From the NCBI GenBank assembly GCA_951406725.2, contig OX597832.1:4898001-4962000 (forward strand): DNA of 64,000 bases, given 5' to 3'. Under the pieces are notes generated by a model. That model did not search any database. It was not told the origin of the DNA and saw only the letters and a program-made list of their open reading frames with translations. The position numbers and the translations under genes are program-made. Positions 17,293-28,300 of this stretch are shown here, piece after piece. The DNA is from Octopus vulgaris. Its lineage: Eukaryota. Positions within the stretch are counted from its first letter, which is position 1; each line of letters opens with the position of its first letter.

Positions 17293-19322
17293 CTGCAAAA
17301 ATATTTAAAAAAAAAACATTAATAATAATCAAGTTATACATAAAAAAATGATATACTTTCAAATAACAAAAAGAAGTTTCTTTATAATAGGAAGTTGTGT
17401 TTATGTCACACTTCCCCATAATAAAACTTTCTAATTACATACACACGGAATCTTTGATGAAAACTGCAGAAGTTGAATGAGTAACCCCAATCAATTGTCC
17501 TCAAACAGATATTTGGTATGGAATTAACTGAGTAATGTTGATGATAACCCATAAGTTCCGTACTTAAAAGCCTAACCTCTAAACCTGTTCTAAGACTAAG
17601 TTGTACATTCTGTCATGCAGTGTTTAGTTATGTGATGCCTGGTAGAGTAGCCTTTCACATTTGTTTTATAGGCCAATCTGTTTTTGAAGGACTGAATTCT
17701 GGTGATGACTACAATACAGACAAGATGATGGAGTTTTACTATGGTAGTTCTATTATACTGTGCAACAAATTTTTGTCCTACTTGCTTACCTTAAGAAAAT
17801 ATGAAAAATGGCTAATATTACCTTCAAACTTTGCTTTTGTTACATTTATTCAAACCCCAAAGAATCCCTCTCAACATGTGGCTACAATGGGCCCCCACTA
17901 CTCTTGCTCATGACCAGAGATGCACATATTGTCAGCCACTAAGGGATATGCTCAAGTGGTTATGGTCAAGCAACTGACAAGCAAATCTGTGGTACTGAGC
18001 AGAATATTTGCTATAATGATATTTCTACTACAGCAACTCAGCACTGAATCTGTCTGAAATGTAATGGAAAATAGGTCAGTTTGAAAACCTTGACGTCCAG
18101 GTCACAATAGCAAATTTTGAAGGGAATTGTAATCATTTCCTTTGATTTCTAGATAGAAGCAAATAGGAAATAACATTTACTGACTAAAGGCAAAAAAAAT
18201 TAAAATTTTGTTACACAGTGTTATGTAACAACCAATGTCTCTGAACACAAAACGGGATACCAATATATATTTCTTTACTACCAACAAGGGGCTAAACACA
18301 GAGGAGACAAACAAGGACAGACAAAGGGATTAAGTCGATTACATCGACCCCAGTGCGCAACTGGTACTTAGTTTATCGACCCCGAAAGGATGAAAGGCAA
18401 AGTCGACCTCGGAGGAATTTGAACCCAGAACACTTAACGGCAGACGAAATACGGCTACACATTTCGCCCGGCGTGCTAACGTTTCTGCCAGCTCGCCGAT
18501 CCTATACAACTCTTCCGAACTCACATACACTTGGTAGGTTAACAGCACTTTGTGGCTTCAGGAATAAATTGGAAAATTATAAATATGAAAAGTTAAACTA
18601 ACTGTGTTGTTTATTTGGAAACAGAAGAAGCAACTAGTATTTCCTTAAAAGATATTTTGGGTCGTCAAAGTCAGAATCAGAGTATAAATGGCAAAATGAG
18701 AGAAAGATTATATAACAGCAAAGTAGGATAATGCGGTATGAAGTGTGGAAGAAGTCAGTGTGTCAGATCACAACAGAGTGGAGGGGATCATATGTTTGTC
18801 AATATGTTTATACAGCTTTCTTTTTAGTTATGGTTACATTACTGTATTTCAGTCTCTTCTAATTCATTAACTGTGAAATTACCTTGCACCACAGCTCATA
18901 TGACAGGTAGAAGAATATCCAACTCATAATCTCCCTTGCATCTCTTTTTTTTTTTCCCATAAGTTACTTTTGCCTCTCTGTTTTCTTCCATATACTTCTA
19001 TAGTTCCAACTCCTACTATTCTTGGATGTTTTGCCTTTCTGTGTTTATAGATGTATTAATATGCATGTGCACATACACACCCAAAGTTATAAGAGAAGAC
19101 TTGTAAACAAGACATGCAGAAGAATTGAACCTAGAACCTGTGTTATTATGAATGTGCCTATCTCATACATTCAAACTACACATTCAACATACCAAACTCA
19201 GCTAATGTCTATTCTGCTCTCAAATGTCTTTTAAACTCTTCAATATATCTAACCACAAATAAGAGCTTGCTCAGATCATGATGACCCATCCAACCTAAGT
19301 CAACATGGAAATTATACATAAA

Positions 19323-19867: not shown

Positions 19868-22800
19868 TACACACATGTTTTCTCTGTCTCACTTCCTCCT
19901 CACCCTCTTGTACTATATCTTATTCCTCCGCACTACTACGAAACTATAAAATGTTCAAACTCCCCACAATTGATTTGATTTGAAAACCCCACTAGATTGG
20001 GAGAAAGCGCTAATCCGAATGATATGATCTGAATGATATGATATATATGTAAAAAATGTAATATATAAATAAATATCTACAAATATGAACCATCTGATCT
20101 GATTACCTCATTTTTTCTAATATATAATACCTGTACATCATCTCCAAACCTTCCGATACATATATTTGGATGTACATGACATCAGAATGGATGGACTAAT
20201 ATCAGATCCACAAACAGAAGATACCAAAAATACAGAAAATATTGAAAGGAATGGAACAGAACCAGACCCCAAACAAGCTTATACCAAACACGCAGAAGAC
20301 CTAACACAAATCTGCAAAATATGCAATGCCGAAATAAACAAGACAGAAGCACATCTTCAACAGGGAAATACAAGAAGCATGGAAGATCTACTCACAGAAA
20401 CCTGTAGTAAGTTAAATTCGCTTCTCTCAAAAATTGATACGCTCTTTGCAAACATTGCTTTAACAATAAATACAATCCAAACACAAAATATTCTCTGTAA
20501 AAATAATCAAGCAAACACAACTGACAACACAAACCTTCTGGCGGGACTACCCCAATCACAAAGGACAACAAATGACGAAGAAACAAAAACTGACACAAAC
20601 CAAGAAAAACCTTCAAAACCCCAAGACTGGAACAAACTTCTAAACCAACGCAAATATGCTTGTTGGAAAAACATACGCTGTAAGAACATAGCCAACATAT
20701 ATCAAAACTGGCGGGACTTGAAGAACCCAATACTCCCTAGAAAATTTCTTATCAAAGAAATAAGGGGTGAAACACTAGAAGAAACAACAATACGTGCAAA
20801 CCTAGCCCTCTGCCGACTAGAAACGGAAATTTCCCTTCTACAAACACGAAGCACACACCAGGAAGATAAGATTAAAACAATCGATACCGTCATAATGGCC
20901 GAGATAACAGAAAGGAACAATAACCAAAACAAAGAAAAACTACAACAATTATGGAAAGAGGATACCGAACGAGAGGAGGAAAGATCCAGATTTATGTGGA
21001 CCAAACAACAGGAGTGGTTTTTACACTACGAAAAGAACTATGGGGAAGAATCAATTATGAAGACAAAAAAACTACCAAAACAAATGAATAGATACAACAA
21101 ACTAACACCACAAACATATTGGACTCCCAGACATCAAAATAAGCCCTACCAAACACAAACCAAAATCCCGCTCCTTACACTGCCGAACCCCCCAATTAAC
21201 AGATACACAAAATATGAAAGACAACCATCAACCCAAAACCCCACAAAAACAAACACACCAACAGCAAGACGAGCACAATACATACAACCAACAACCTATA
21301 ACACTTGGAGAGAACAAATAGAATATGAACAACCACCAACACATAACACTGGACACCCTAAAGGGGGACACACATGGAACAATATATAAATGGATAGAAA
21401 TCAACACATAACCTACAACAAACATCAAGGAAATCGAAACTACACAAACACCAACCCCATGCAACCCCACAAATTTCCAAGATGGATAAAAAACAACTCC
21501 CACTATCAATACAATACAAACACAATACATGAACCATCCACCTACCCACAAAGAAACCTAAACCCCAGTAATAAATATTGGCTCAACAAACACAGAAGAT
21601 GGGAAGAAAACAACTACCAAAGACAAAACAACACATACAGACCACCCCAACTACAAGAAAACCTAAGAACTGAAAATGGAATTTAGAGACGTAACAACAC
21701 AACCCATTTTTTAGGGAGAGGATACTTCAACCATACTCCAGACCCAATACACCAAAACTTCCGGATGAACTCCCAAAACACATAGACCCCAAAATAATAA
21801 ACTTATCTAAAAGAGAACTTGACGAATATGAAATGAACCTACTACTAAAAGGCCTCAAATTTACACCTACACCCACTCCAAACCTCATAGAACTAAAAAC
21901 TGACATAGACAACTTCAGCTGCTACCTCCGCCTTATGGAATTCTTTGAAAATAAAGAAACAGAAGATAACTCAATCATAAGAAAAAAATCCCACTTCACC
22001 CCTTACAAGGGAAGTGACAAACACCTTGACACATACATAGAAACAATATCCAAATTCCCTCTTCACACACACAAATGCAAACAGAATCTCCGCAGAGAAG
22101 AAAAACAAGCCCTACAAAAACTGAAAAATGACAAATCAATCGTTATAAAAGAAGCTGACAAAGGTGGAGCAATAGTAATTATGGACACAGATTACTACAA
22201 AGAAAAGATACTAGAGTTACTGAACAACCAGACATATTACAAAGAGGAACCAACACCACCGGAGAAAACAACAATAAGAAAAATTAGAATTTAGTCAATG
22301 AATATCAGGACTCCTTTACAGATAAGGAGGAAGACTATCTATGCAACTCACAAACCAAAGAAAGCAACTTTTATGGATTACCTAAAATTCATAAAAGCTC
22401 GGAAATACAGAGAGCCATAAAGGAACAGAGGAACCACTATATAAGAGTACAAAGGCCTGCAGACCTCACAATGAGACCAATAGTGGCAGGACCCCAGGCA
22501 CCAACACAACAACTAAGCCACTTCATAGATATACTCCTCAAACCTCTATGCCCACAGATTCCAAGCTACATAAGGGATGACATAGACTTCCTCACACACA
22601 TTCCAAATACAGTCCCAAAAAACACCATACTTGCAAGCTTTGATGTCACAAATCTATACACAAACATACCACACACCCTAGGTCTAGAAGCTATAAAACA
22701 ATCAATAGAAAAATACAGAGAACTTATAGACGAACGCTTCAAGACAAACTTTATCACCCAAGCCACCCAACTAATACTAGAAGAAAACACATTCTCATTC

Positions 22801-24400
22801 AACAACAAGACATACCGACAGATAAAAGGCACGGCTATGGGTACAAAATTCGCACCTTCATATGCCAACCTGGTGATGGGCTTCCTGGAGAAAAAACTAT
22901 ATGACGAAATAGGGAAAGTCTTCGAACACGACTTCAGAGAAGACATCAAGAAAAAGTGGAAACGCTACCTCGATGACTGTTTCATCTTTTGGAACAGATC
23001 AGAAGAGGACCTACAAACATTCCACAACATCCTCAATACGCTGCACCCATCTATCAATTTCACAATAGATACCAGCCACAACGAACTTCCCTTCCTAGAC
23101 ATCAACATCAAAATACACAACTCCATCGTCACAACAGACATCCACTACAAAAAAACTGACACACATCAATACTTAAATTTCCACTCCTGCCACCCATCCC
23201 ACACAAAAAGAAACATCCCATATAGTATGGCACGACGAATATGTAGCATAGTAACTGATTCACAAATACGATTAATAAGACTAGATGAACTCAAAAGCTT
23301 CCTCCTAGAGCAAAAATACCCCCTTAAACTAATAGAAAATGGAATCACAAGAGCATTAAAACTAGACATCACACAACTCAGGACACCCAAAACAAAAAAC
23401 AAAGAAAACACTATCCCTTTTATAAACACACACAACCCTGGAGTTACCAACATCTTCCAAACCATACATTCAAACCTACCAATAGCCTTACAAAGCCCCA
23501 AAATGAAAAACATATTAAACAAATATAGCATAAAAAACAGTAGACGACAGGACAAAAACCTAAAAAAACACCTAACAAGAGCGAAATTCTCTTCAGAAAC
23601 TAAAACGGAATTCTTTGCAAAAGAGTGCGGAGATGGTAGATGTGGGACCTGCAGCAACCCCACCTACAAATACATAGAGAGCAACAGAGAGATAAGATTT
23701 AAAAATGGTGTCATATTCAAAGTAAATGCAGATATGAACTGCAAGACGCAGAACGTCATATACTGCATAACCTGCCCCACGTGCAAGGAGAATTACGTAG
23801 GTGAAACTGGTAATTCTTTGTGCCAGCGAGCCAGGATCCACCGACAACATATTCGGCAGGAAGAACTACGCAAAATACCACTAAGCACACACCTAGCTAC
23901 ATGTGGAGAAGGAAAATTTAAGATATTTCCCTTCTACAAGTGTCCGAAGAACGACACCCCCTTCAGGAGGAATATGGAAAAACATTTCTCCCCCAAAGTT
24001 CTCCCCCAAATTAAATGGCTGAAACTTTATTCAACATACATTGAAGGACAAAAAATTTTTTTCGATTTACAATATGATACAGTGGAACATTTAATATATG
24101 TGTGTGTGTATATATATATAGGTGTGTATGTGTATATGTTACTTGTTACATACATTATATTGTTTTTGCAATTTACTTGATCTTTACTCGCCAATTGTCA
24201 TTCTAACTTTAACCTTCCTATGATATGCAATTTTCAAGATGGTGTAACTTGATTGTTCATTTTGATTCGTTAGAAGGTGGATTTTTCCCTAATATTTCAT
24301 GTGTAAGCATGTATATATATATATATATAGTGACATTGAAGGACGCATCTTTCGATTTACAATCTAATATAGTAGAACATTTAGTATATGTCTGTGTGTG

Positions 24401-24439
<39 letters not shown>

Positions 24440-25056
24440 GTGTGTGTATAGATATGTGTATTGCCTGTTATATACATCATATTATATTATTATCTTTATA
24501 ATTCACTTCCATCTTTACCTTTTAATTGTCACTTTAATTTTAACTTTCCTATGATATACAATTTTCAAGATGGTATAATTTGGTTGTTCATTTTTGACCG
24601 ATAAAAAGGTTTTTTTCAAATATTTTATGTATAAGTCTGTGTGTGTGTGTATATATATGTATTGGTATAAATATCAACACACAAAAATATTTTTTTCTTC
24701 TCCACTTCCTCCCTTATTTTTATTTTTATTTATTTTTTATATTTTTTTTTTATTTTTTTATTTTCCCTTTTCTCTTTTTGTCTCTCTCCCCTTCTCCAAA
24801 CACACAGACAGACAGACACACACACACACACGCACACACAAACACACACGGACACACAGAGACACACACACACACACACCTCCACAAAATGATCATAGAA
24901 AGTGTGATCCCAAATGACATTTGTCAGGCCAACCTACGCACAACACACACTCAGTGACATCGAAATGGACAGAGCCAAGTTCTTATAAAACCACAGGAGG
25001 TCCAGTAGACCAACGGAAATAACACTTCTTCCCTCTCAGATATAAACGCGCGCACA

Positions 25057-25103
<47 letters not shown>

Positions 25104-25341
25104 ATGTTTTCTCTGTCTCACTTCCTCCTCACCCTCTTGTACTATATCTTATTCCTCCGCACTACTACGAAACTATAAAATGTTCAAACTCCCCACAATT
25201 GATTTGATTTGAAAACCCCACTAGATTGGGAGAAAGCGCTAATCCGAATGATATGATCTGAATGATATGATATATATGTAAAAAATGTAATATATAAATA
25301 AATATCTACAAATATGAACCATCTGATCTGATTACCTCATT

Positions 25342-25386
<45 letters not shown>

Positions 25387-28300
25387 AAATACAAAATGGG
25401 ACAAGAACACAAAACATCCGGACAACTAGGTGATACAAAAGGGGACAACAAAACATCCAGATAGACAATACAAAAAAAACAAGGATGGGTCATTCGAAGC
25501 CTTTTATCTTCAGTCAAGAACCGGATCATCCTCACAATTTCGGCTGATTAATCTTGAGACTGCTCCAATCTGGCCAGCCCCAATGAAAAATTAAGCTAAG
25601 AGCATTAGATTCCTTGGAAAAAAGCATCAAATGTATACGAAAACAAGGACAGAAAAACAGACGATGTTACATGGATATAACTACAAAAATACAATAAAAA
25701 TAATAATAACAGGACATAACAACAGGCGTCTTTCGACTGGGGACGAATTGAATTCACCTGGCGTGTGTGGAAATGAAGCCTTATGGCAGAGGGATGAATA
25801 TCGATGTGGCAGTGACCGTGGTCAGACGCAAAAGGGCTAGTAGTCAGCCAATAGGTCATATATATATATATATATATATACATATATACAGTAATCCATG
25901 GAGGAATTGACATAAGCTTAAATAATAAATCACGATAGGTGAACTGCAATACAGTGAGGGATTACTGTATATTTATATATATTCATATATAAATAGTTGA
26001 AAAATTTGAACTCATTTTTTTCTTTTATATATATATAAAAGAAAAAAATGAATTCAAATGATTTTTTTAAATGACTTGCTTTGAAGTTTTGCATTCGGTA
26101 CAACTTGTTTATCTTAGTAGTCTTGACCGCAAGGGTCCCTCTAATAGCGTGCGGTATCTATGAATATAGGTACCCTCTATATAATATAAATAAATATTTT
26201 TAAAGTGGATAAATTTACGGATTTTTTCTCTTATCCTCAATTGTAAAAAAAAAAAAAAATATATATATATAAATGCATATACAAATATAATATGAAGTGT
26301 TCTGCTCAAAAATCATAAGATTTTGGTTTCAATTCCTGGACTGGGTGATACGTTGTGTTCTTGAATAAAACACTTCATTTCACGTTGCTCCAGTCCACTC
26401 AACTGGCAAAAAAGAGTAATCCTGTGAAAGATCAGTGTCCTGTCCAGTTGGGGAATTTATACGCCACTGAAACCAGGAAACCAGCCCTTATGAGCCTAGC
26501 ATGGCTTGAGAAGGAAGCATTTCTTCTTCTTTCTGCTCAAAAACACTACACATAGGCTGGTCTAAGAATCAAAGCCACAATCTTACAATCATGAGTCCAA
26601 CACCCAAACTGCCATGTACCTTCACTGTAGTAAAACAAGGTATTCAATAATTAAATCAAGAAGGATGAAATAAAAACAAAATCTTTTTGATGATGCTGTT
26701 TGTAAAGTTTTACCCTTAAACTTGGCCTTATTTATTTATTATTAACAATGAAGTTGTGGTTTGGGATTAAAAATTAATTTTAAAGGTTAGAGTTAAAGTT
26801 CATAAATATCGTTTACTATAGTTTGCAGCTGAATATTAAAAAATTTATAAGTGCTCAAGAATACACCTAAGTTTTAACAGCTTCTGCCCCACATCTGTTT
26901 GGACATTCTCAATATTCATCAATATAAAACATGAAATCAATTTCTACATATGTTAATGGATATTGTATACTTACAATAATAATTACACTGTGTAACAGCT
27001 TTTTTTTTTTAAATCTTTGGTCAGTAAGTGTTATTTCCTATTTGCTTCTATCAAAAGAAATGACTACTATTCCTGAGTTGCTGAAACAGAGATATCATTA
27101 TAGCAAATATTCTGCTCAATACCACAGATTTGCTTGTCAGTTGCTTGTCCATAACAACTTGAGCATATCCCTTAGTGGCTGGCTATATGTGCATCTCTAA
27201 TCATGAGCAGGAGTGCTGGGGAAGCATCATAGCCATGAGTTGAGAGGAATTCTTTGAAGTTTGAATAAACATAACAAAAGCAAAGTTTGAAGGTAATATT
27301 AGCCATTCTTCATACTTTGTAGGGTTTTTTTTTTTTTTTTGGCAATCCCTCAAGATCGAGGATGATGGTCTTCGTGCAAATTTACTGGTGAGTCCGTAGG
27401 TGACCGATAAGACCAATTCTTGCTTGAAAAGATCAGTCGCAGTGCGGACATCTAGTGCCGGAAGGGGTAAGCAAATAGGAAATAACAGTTGCTACCCAAG
27501 GATAAAAACCTTGTTACACAGTGTTATATAGTCATGAAGTATATCATAAATAATTTCAGAAAACTTGTTATACAAGACAGATGTGTGAGAATGTTGTGAA
27601 GGAGTAAATACTAGATGAAAAATGATTACCTCAGCACATAGGTGAAAATAACACAGCAAGATGGTAGCTTCAGAGCAAGTGATGATGAGGATGATGAACA
27701 CAAGAAAGAGGAATCCAAACATATAGTATGTTTGATGTGACCTGAAATAAATTTAAAATAAAGAAGAAATTTTTTTTACAATCACAAAATATTTTACTTA
27801 TTTACTCATTCTTGTCAAATATTTGGCAAATTACAAAACAAAAGCTTCATCTCCAGATCACATAATTTATTACTAATTATCTTTTTGATCAACAAATATT
27901 TCTATTATTAGATGTATCAGGTCATCCCATAAGTTCTGTCTGATTTTACCTTTTTTAAAATTGAATGAAATTTAATGGTATTTTAGAATGTCTAATGGAA
28001 TTAAAAATTATTTTTATGCATTTCTGTACATTTAAACTAATTAAATATCATTTTACAGAATAATAGAATTAAAATTTCTTTGATTAAAACCCTTTCCAAC
28101 ATGGAAGTATCCAAAGAGTATTTGAGGCACATAATGCTTTATGGGTGCAAAAAGGGAAACTCTGCAACCGAAGTGACTCGAAACATACACTCAGTTTATG
28201 GGAAAGAATGCTTGAATGAAAGAACTTGCAGAAGATGGTTTGCAAAATTCACAAGTGGAGATTTCAGTCTAGAAGATGAAGACCGAACAGGACGTCCAGT

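Follow-up and report, generated by a model that had tools for sequence, protein, structure and literature searches.

One Penelope-like element (PLE) fills positions 19871-25355 of the window, the window being the whole stretch of 64,000 nucleotides from Octopus vulgaris that was analysed. The element is bounded by two pseudo-LTRs and there is no second copy elsewhere in the 64-kb window. Its features are:

19871..20126, + strand: 5' pseudo-LTR, a direct repeat of 256 nt identical to 25100-25355; adjoins a (CA)n/(TA)n microsatellite
20190..21785, + strand: ORF1, about 530 codons, with a helical core of no known family, a low-complexity tail and two copy-specific stops
21387..21389, + strand: in-frame TAA, private to the window copy (another letter in 4/4 sequencing runs)
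21684..21686, + strand: in-frame TAG, private to the window copy (another letter in 4/4 sequencing runs)
21692..21694, + strand: TAA that shuts the reverse transcriptase (RT) frame, 13 nt 5' of the heptamer; the family state, unchanged in three spanning contigs
21695..21782, + strand: 88 nt in which ORF1 overlaps the -1 (RT) frame
21695..24022, + strand: ORF2, with PLE reverse transcriptase, linker and GIY-YIG endonuclease (Pfam RVT_1 and GIY-YIG); one break and a probable second
21707..21713, + strand: U_UUU_UUA, a slippery heptamer read as Phe-Leu in ORF1 and the predicted site of the -1 frameshift
21714..21745, + strand: G+C-rich 3' context without convincing stimulatory structure
21794..21808, + strand: IINLS motif, which opens the conserved PLE RT N-terminal region, 5' of the first in-frame ATG (21833)
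25100..25355, + strand: 3' pseudo-LTR, the 256-nt identical repeat, with (TA)n after it

ORF1 is taken to start at its first ATG (20190), a putative start codon, and its frame closes at TAG 21783. ORF2 matches Pfam RVT_1 (2.6e-10) and carries the RT N-terminal motifs GLKF and KEADKGG (GxKF and DKG type) within 21695-22291. Its Pfam GIY-YIG match (E 3.8e-4) has 21.1 bits and is under the curated cut-off of 22.6; close homologues of ORF2 exceed this cut-off and the CCHH residues of the endonuclease (VIYC..C..YVG..H..H) are recognisable by inspection. Ahead of GIY-YIG there is a C-x4-C-x2-C linker (CGDGRCGTC, 23626-23652), and a CX2-5CxxC linker is likewise present in three of the related loci described below (L003, L016 and L083). 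With PLE RT motifs, GIY-YIG and pseudo-LTRs all present, the element is an endonuclease-bearing (EN+) PLE.

The window copy is decayed and dead. In addition to the two in-frame stops at 21387 and 21684, its RT frame is broken at about 22289 and probably once more near 23985-24010; the earlier note on this DNA had listed the two stops and overlooked both breaks. An 11-nt duplication-like stretch moves the end of the endonuclease ORF (23985-24022, outside the region covered by the read contigs used below), and the family-type ending sits in another frame. Because of this decay, the window by itself could not settle the question of a frameshift.

The stretch between the end of the ORF and the 3' pseudo-LTR (24038-24657) holds a degraded tandem duplication, its two units of about 300 nt being 69% alike, and the element is enclosed by an inverted repeat pair (17796-18204 and 27000-27318; 246 nt and 53 nt, 85-88% complementary, about 9 kb apart). 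Neither Rfam nor a pattern search identified a hammerhead core in the pseudo-LTR of the window, and Rfam returned only microsatellite-driven miRNA matches for the window. By pattern match only, L003, L005, L013, L034 and L083 have CTGANGA..GAAA cores, which lie beside ORF1 or at the repeat, and a hammerhead-like core (CTGAAGA..GAAT) lies on the minus strand at 25480-25530, just beyond the 3' pseudo-LTR; the latter is possibly the end of another, oppositely oriented PLE.

At the junction the ORF1 frame reads CAT TTT TTA GGG AGA, reproducing the U_UUU_UUA heptamer that the earlier note had placed at 21707-21713 in phase with ORF1. The RT frame is -1 relative to ORF1 and begins after TAA 21692: as also described there, it opens at 21695 and has no ATG until 21833, which lies 3' of the start of IINLS. 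T6A occurs a single time in 20001-24050 and is the only one in the element. Heptamers of the general XXXYYYZ type number 35 in 20121-24100; two are inside the 88-nt overlap and U_UUU_UUA is the sole one in phase.

To read the family state, other copies were drawn from the contigs of four public sequencing runs (X1, X7, X8 and X17, from four studies and with three organism codes) and compared over 19880-22450; all these data are contigs, which drop rare forms, and the RNA status of X1 and X8 is a guess. TAA 21387 is replaced in all four runs (13.3 of 18.4 depth in X1, essentially all depth in the other three), TAG 21684 is destroyed at position 21685 in all four (at essentially full depth), and all four have one additional base at 22289, making this RT break private to the window copy. 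As both stops and the 22289 break are absent from other copies, the contig comparison is able to reveal copy-specific damage. Contigs from three of the four runs span the junction: X1#4 (21415-22172, 7 differences to the window), X7#23 (21589-22185, 6 differences) and X8#27 (20889-22185, 20 differences), with 9 gap bases each. These gap bases all belong to a 9-nt insertion at 21636, which keeps the frame, and, checked by hand, no difference adds a stop. None of the differences falls within 21686-21757 or at 21783 and heptamer and offset are unchanged; thus, the family state is an ORF1 that reads on past the heptamer without a stop, an RT frame still shut by TAA 21692 and an offset of -1. Three questions that the earlier note had raised are answered by these copies: ORF1 is open to the heptamer outside the window copy, heptamer and -1 phase are conserved (as T6A or T6G also in distant relatives, see below), and ORF1 and RT are kept in different frames rather than in one.

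For the comparison at DNA level, 120 loci were fetched with the RT alignment, the ORF1 alignment being too divergent for locus scans. Seven of the 120 have an ORF1 profile match (L003, L005, L012, L013, L016, L034 and L083) and all seven have a heptamer in -1 phase, T_TTT_TTA in L003, L005, L012, L016 and L034 and T_TTT_TTG in L013 and L083, with codons that are always TTT plus TTR, preceded by T; the sample at DNA level is only these seven loci, two of them are close kin, and L012 and L083 are partly decayed. In L005, ORF1 matches the profile at the opposite end of the contig, and the tail preceding the RT is cut off by the contig edge. U_UUU_UUG is outside the classic XXXYYYZ sites, in which Z is A, U or C. 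The RT frame is open from the heptamer to IINLS over 29-58 codons in the window and all seven loci; the chance of this is 0.02-0.24 per locus and, multiplied by hand with L034 omitted as kin of L003, about 1e-7 to 1e-8 jointly. An ATG between heptamer and IINLS is absent in seven of these eight sequences; L016 has one in frame. Of three further loci, L037 (RT 31% identical) has T6G in phase, L030 has T6A in phase and was excluded from the site counts for an RT-frame TGA downstream and a broken RT, and L057, a decayed relative of L013 with T5, is uncounted. Viral contigs yielded one weak locus and then none. Two frames, a -1 offset, an in-phase heptamer, an RT frame open from heptamer to IINLS and the lack of a conserved RT start are therefore found across divergent families.

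The same data bear on whether the two frames of the window stem from a copy-specific indel in an ancestrally single ORF, with a heptamer present by chance. The window copy does carry two stops and one or more further frame breaks, and single-ORF PLEs with an in-frame N-terminal domain are known among more distant relatives (L009, L010, L015, L017, L022 and L025). However, the offset is kept in contigs of three runs, whereas the 22289 break is missing from other copies; the same -1 offset with T6R recurs in 7/7 divergent loci, and there is no in-frame fusion among 150 ORF1 and 140 RT homologues, intron-bridged models aside. The contig comparison and the seven related loci refute the indel, and we leave it practically no probability. 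In a quick RT tree of 49 rows, built from fetched loci only and without L012 and L034, which were too short, the window groups with the T6R loci on a single branch (SH-aLRT 91, or 99 with L008), separate from the single-ORF PLEs; L037 is a long branch.

The ORF1 family has at least 420 representatives (homologues at E<=1e-3) and no known domain; the best 150 of the 420 are all at most 706 aa long. The homologues with a named source come from Mytilus, Saccostrea and Pinctada and from symbiont assemblies that are probably contaminated by host. Among 507 prokaryotic genomes, ORF1 was found only on the L083 contig again and in three marginal matches of about 1e-3, and a word-indexed search, which is weak, revealed no long ORF1 fusion among 224 candidates. 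Positions 20121-21386 of ORF1 have no Pfam match. A structure model predicts an all-helical core with five long helices (mean pLDDT 82, pTM 0.56), for which the PDB holds no match at E<=0.001, and the N-terminal domain of the single-ORF PLEs is not significantly similar to ORF1 (hhalign E 0.34). Judged from the modelled helical core and the R/N/Q-rich tail, ORF1 probably acts in RNP assembly, as an RNA-binding or oligomerising part.

The tail of ORF1 is otherwise unalignable among homologues, and carries Phe-Leu. For the counts, we used the 88 of the best 150 homologues that have at least 300 aa and dropped the 62 shorter ones as fragments. Phe-Leu is present inside the last 45 residues in 70 of the 88 (shuffled sequences: mean 7.1, maximum 15) and in the two preceding windows in 2/88 and 6/88, respectively. 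These 70 proteins form 67 clusters at 50% identity and 36 at 40% and are thus not a handful of near-copies, though related. Residues with codons unable to end in U (K/E/Q/M/W) never stand just before Phe-Leu (0/70, background 0.198; P 2e-7 if independent), and are found 9, 15 and 12 times at positions -2, -3 and -4. The ORF1 stop is never nearer than 9-10 codons past Phe-Leu and is exactly 10 codons away in 20/70, about one ribosome length; this spacing could reflect stop-codon stimulation, structure or a donor motif. Among the 18 homologues without terminal Phe-Leu, four have FF and three NF near the end and some are broken or truncated.

On the RT side, the ORF1 domain is absent from all 140 homologues (120 close and 20 long); 14 of the 20 long ones have an in-frame N-terminal domain. 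The called proteins of the 120 close homologues begin 3' of IINLS in 69 cases and scattered 0-70 aa upstream of it in 51. PLE RT sequences are also present in several bacterial genome assemblies and MAGs (L082-L120), most likely as host contamination. Among the best 150 of the 420 ORF1 homologues and the 140 RT homologues there is no in-frame ORF1-RT fusion beyond intron-bridged bivalve models: within the best 150 of 420, RT sequence accompanies ORF1 in a single case, a Mytilus gene model joined via a predicted intron, and in the Mytilus models P0032, P0159 and P0160 such an intron bridges ORF1 and RT and removes IINLS. The bridging is probably an annotation artefact of the frameshift.

These models do raise the question of whether splicing joins ORF1 to the RT, either with TTTTTTAG as acceptor, as the earlier note had considered, or with a donor close to the ORF1 end and an acceptor within the RT. 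PLEs are known to retain introns, according to the accessible text of PMC8557442, T6AG is present in six of nine DNA loci, and the residue after Phe-Leu has a G-initial codon in 47/70 homologues. Moreover, a donor-like GGTAA is found 27-54 nt 3' of the heptamer in five of the nine loci (background 24/318 windows), the window not being one of the five; in this nine-locus set, also used for the open frame, L037 replaces the L030 of the folding set below. The approximate positions of the donor-like G/GTAA are:

L003, position 1379
L034, position 2176
L012, position 3303
L013, position 1780
L083, position 1262

However, the AG is missing in L013, L083 and L037, and its absence in L013 and L083 argues against a splice acceptor at the heptamer; likewise, Phe-Leu is followed by Y/W/F/P/H/L/N in 18/70 homologues, incompatible with TTA-G. 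ORF1 continues past the heptamer as an open frame of fixed phase, a donor motif is lacking in the window, the GGTAA is placed beyond the ORF1 stop of L003 and L034 and takes in the stop of L013 and L083, and an intron from this donor to the RT would remove IINLS, which is conserved and in open frame. No joint at 21714/21715 is listed for the two presumed-RNA runs, which is weak evidence as contigs drop rare forms; the check for spliced reads proposed in the earlier note thus came out in favour of frameshifting on the AG and only faintly so on the joints. The GGTAA enrichment suggests that splicing may contribute in some families; as the general way of joining ORF1 and RT we consider it very improbable.

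Slightly less probable again is that the RT is made separately, by reinitiation, a leaky or non-AUG start or a subgenomic RNA, and that Phe-Leu is a motif of the ORF1 protein. The 51 of 120 called RT proteins that begin upstream of IINLS and the ATG of L016 fit with this, and the protein data alone are compatible with an [HPSN]FL binding motif. However, seven of eight loci have no ATG ahead of IINLS, the called starts scatter over 0-70 aa, the offset is -1 in every locus, and TTT plus TTR preceded by T in all DNA loci is beyond the need of a protein motif.

An RNA polymerase that slips on T6 and adds a U, with the fusion translated from edited transcripts rather than by ribosome slippage, would also agree with a homopolymer run as the conserved feature and with the failure to find a ribosomal stimulator. 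The run is just six long, though, a fixed phase to the ORF1 codons would not be needed by such a polymerase, and no added T is listed at 21707-21712, in contigs that drop rare variants; we give polymerase slippage a marginally smaller chance than separate RT synthesis. Even summed, the four rivals remain quite unlikely.

The earlier note had reported a weak stem downstream of the heptamer and weak it is: with z from -0.47 to +0.62 it folds no better than shuffled sequences, and the window shows no stimulatory stem-loop or pseudoknot at the typical spacing of 5-9 nt. The first 30 nt 3' of the heptamer are G+C-rich (0.64, 0.60 and 0.51, compared with about 0.35). Across nine folded loci, which include L030, there is no shared stimulatory fold (window z -0.21 and +1.07); clear hairpins are restricted to three of the nine (L016, L005 and L083), and the Stouffer z is about -2. 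An unrelated group of 12 endonuclease-less PLE loci (five C-termini inspected, no GIY-YIG) has instead A_AAA_AAC followed about 6 nt 3' by an H-type pseudoknot. Here, a long ORF1 and the RT share about 600 nt, in -1 phase, and the heptamer is at the start of the RT frame. The pseudoknot, drawn by eye from the alignment and then scored, shows pairing in 99% of cells, with compensatory changes at 3/10 pairs in 11 rows. As a covarying pseudoknot is detectable in this group, its absence from the U_UUU_UUR clade is informative. The A_AAA_AAC sites are:

L041, position 2361
L042, position 232
L043, position 1636
L045, position 1192
L046, position 579
L049, position 2575 (a second at 2587)
L058, position 1237
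L059, position 1922
L061, position 1849
L062, position 1194
L066, position 1806
L077, position 1877

Two single loci of other PLE lineages, each with a long upstream ORF, have other candidate heptamers in a -1 overlap: L028 has U_UUA_AAC at 2252 in an overlap of 10 nt, and L085 has G_GGU_UUU or C_CCA_AAC (3125 and 3149) in one of 196 nt.

Taken together, the sequence comparisons make it highly probable that the window element belongs to a clade of EN+ PLEs with overlapping ORF1 and RT-GIY-YIG frames that are joined by programmed -1 frameshifting at a conserved U_UUU_UUR. The earlier note had proposed such a frameshift from ORF1 to an ORF1-RT-EN fusion, and the conservation of offset, heptamer and phase supports it. 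Recoding is very likely functional in the active family, the window copy itself being dead. Most ribosomes would end at the ORF1 stop 9-40 codons on and make the helical ORF1 protein as main product, while in a minority tandem tRNA slippage at Phe-Leu would lead to an ORF1-RT-EN fusion of about 1,280 aa (506 + 774 codons); a stimulator, if any, would differ between families. A bolder version, which we consider doubtful, is that of a large, undescribed clade of bivalve and other marine assemblies with an ORF1 family of its own, which would obtain its RT-endonuclease solely via the U_UUU_UUR slip and with no conserved RNA structure, the ORF1 stop (at least 9-10 codons on, most commonly exactly 10) stalling the trailing ribosome as stimulator; together with the A_AAA_AAC-pseudoknot group and the U_UUA_AAC locus, recoding would then have arisen several times in PLEs. 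A frameshift also accounts for RTs of the clade that are called truncated or intron-bridged in bivalve annotations, and the dozens of U_UUU_UUR sites that occur naturally in animal genomes, in differing 3' surroundings, offer a test set for -1 stimulation in the absence of a conserved structure.

U_UUU_UUA is the gag-pol site of HIV-1 (PMC5009743) and, according to the available part of PMC2569925, causes 10-18% frameshifting in alphaviruses with diverse 3' signals. The window family shares with HIV-1 gag-pol and alphavirus 6K/TF the heptamer with Phe-Leu in frame 0 (accessible parts of PMC5009743, PMC2569925 and PMC3561942), and with the alphaviruses the diversity of 3' contexts; unlike these systems, it has T6G variants and lacks Gag, protease, integrase, LTRs and a stable stem-loop. 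Pfam matches neither Gag (capsid fold, CCHC knuckle) nor protease or integrase, and the repeats are not true LTRs. The 'gag-pol-like' strategy suggested by the earlier note hence describes the logic of expression well, but not the protein, as ORF1 is without any Gag feature.

Canonical EN+ PLEs (Penelope/Poseidon, Neptune and Nematis) are described as single-ORF in the accessible text of Craig et al. 2021 (PMC8557442) and likewise in that of PMC3846280, PMC11167929 and PMC4209133. The window element resembles Neptune and Nematis in its RT with C-terminal GIY-YIG, CX2-5CxxC linker, GxKF and DKG motifs, pseudo-LTRs and microsatellite flanks. It differs from these single-ORF elements in that the N-terminal part has an ORF to itself, in the +1 frame, two frames being found in the family and in 7/7 related loci; furthermore, no relationship is detectable between ORF1 and the N-terminal domain of the single-ORF relatives, and the RTs are on their own branch. 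Other ORFs upstream of the RT in EN+ PLEs encode different proteins, as far as the accessible text goes: an esterase ORF1p (PMC3905857), the zinc-knuckle ORF1 of Chlamys-2/-5_cBra (PMC8557442) and a non-overlapping ORF1 of 420 nt in killifish Neptune (PMC12602865). The word 'frameshift' is absent from the main text of PMC3905857 and PMC12602865, and the accessible parts of PMC6431247, PMC5408684 and bioRxiv 10.64898/2026.07.22.740005 contain nothing on an ORF1/RT frameshift in EN+ PLEs. Five short motifs typical of the clade are absent from the text of the Craig supplement (PMC8557442), where wrapped alignments could hide them. In the literature searched, which was mostly open-access and did not include Repbase, we found no description of a two-ORF EN+ PLE clade with such a helical, frameshifted ORF1; the arrangement may already be covered in Arkhipova 2006, Arkhipova 2017 or Repbase/Dfam entries.

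The closest parallel is in the legend of Fig. 1 of Craig et al. 2021 (PMC8557442), where, for an unnamed clade, a 'frameshift with a pseudoknot' is said to be able to set ORF1 apart (CC standing for coiled-coil). In both those elements and ours, a frameshift would link an ORF1 that resembles a coiled coil to a PLE RT, but the window element has an endonuclease, is not telomeric and has no conserved pseudoknot; it is our A_AAA_AAC-pseudoknot group that fits the wording of the legend. The frameshifted two-ORF PLEs of this legend are reportedly the EN-deficient Athena/Terminon elements, said to be those of Arkhipova et al. 2017. The earlier note's statement that EN+ PLEs are usually described as single-ORF agrees with these papers; the frameshift between ORF1 and RT as such is not wholly new, being already in print for PLEs. 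What is added to the known systems is the EN+ clade with helical ORF1, which would change the standard view of EN+ PLEs, the sister group of telomerase RT, as single-ORF elements.
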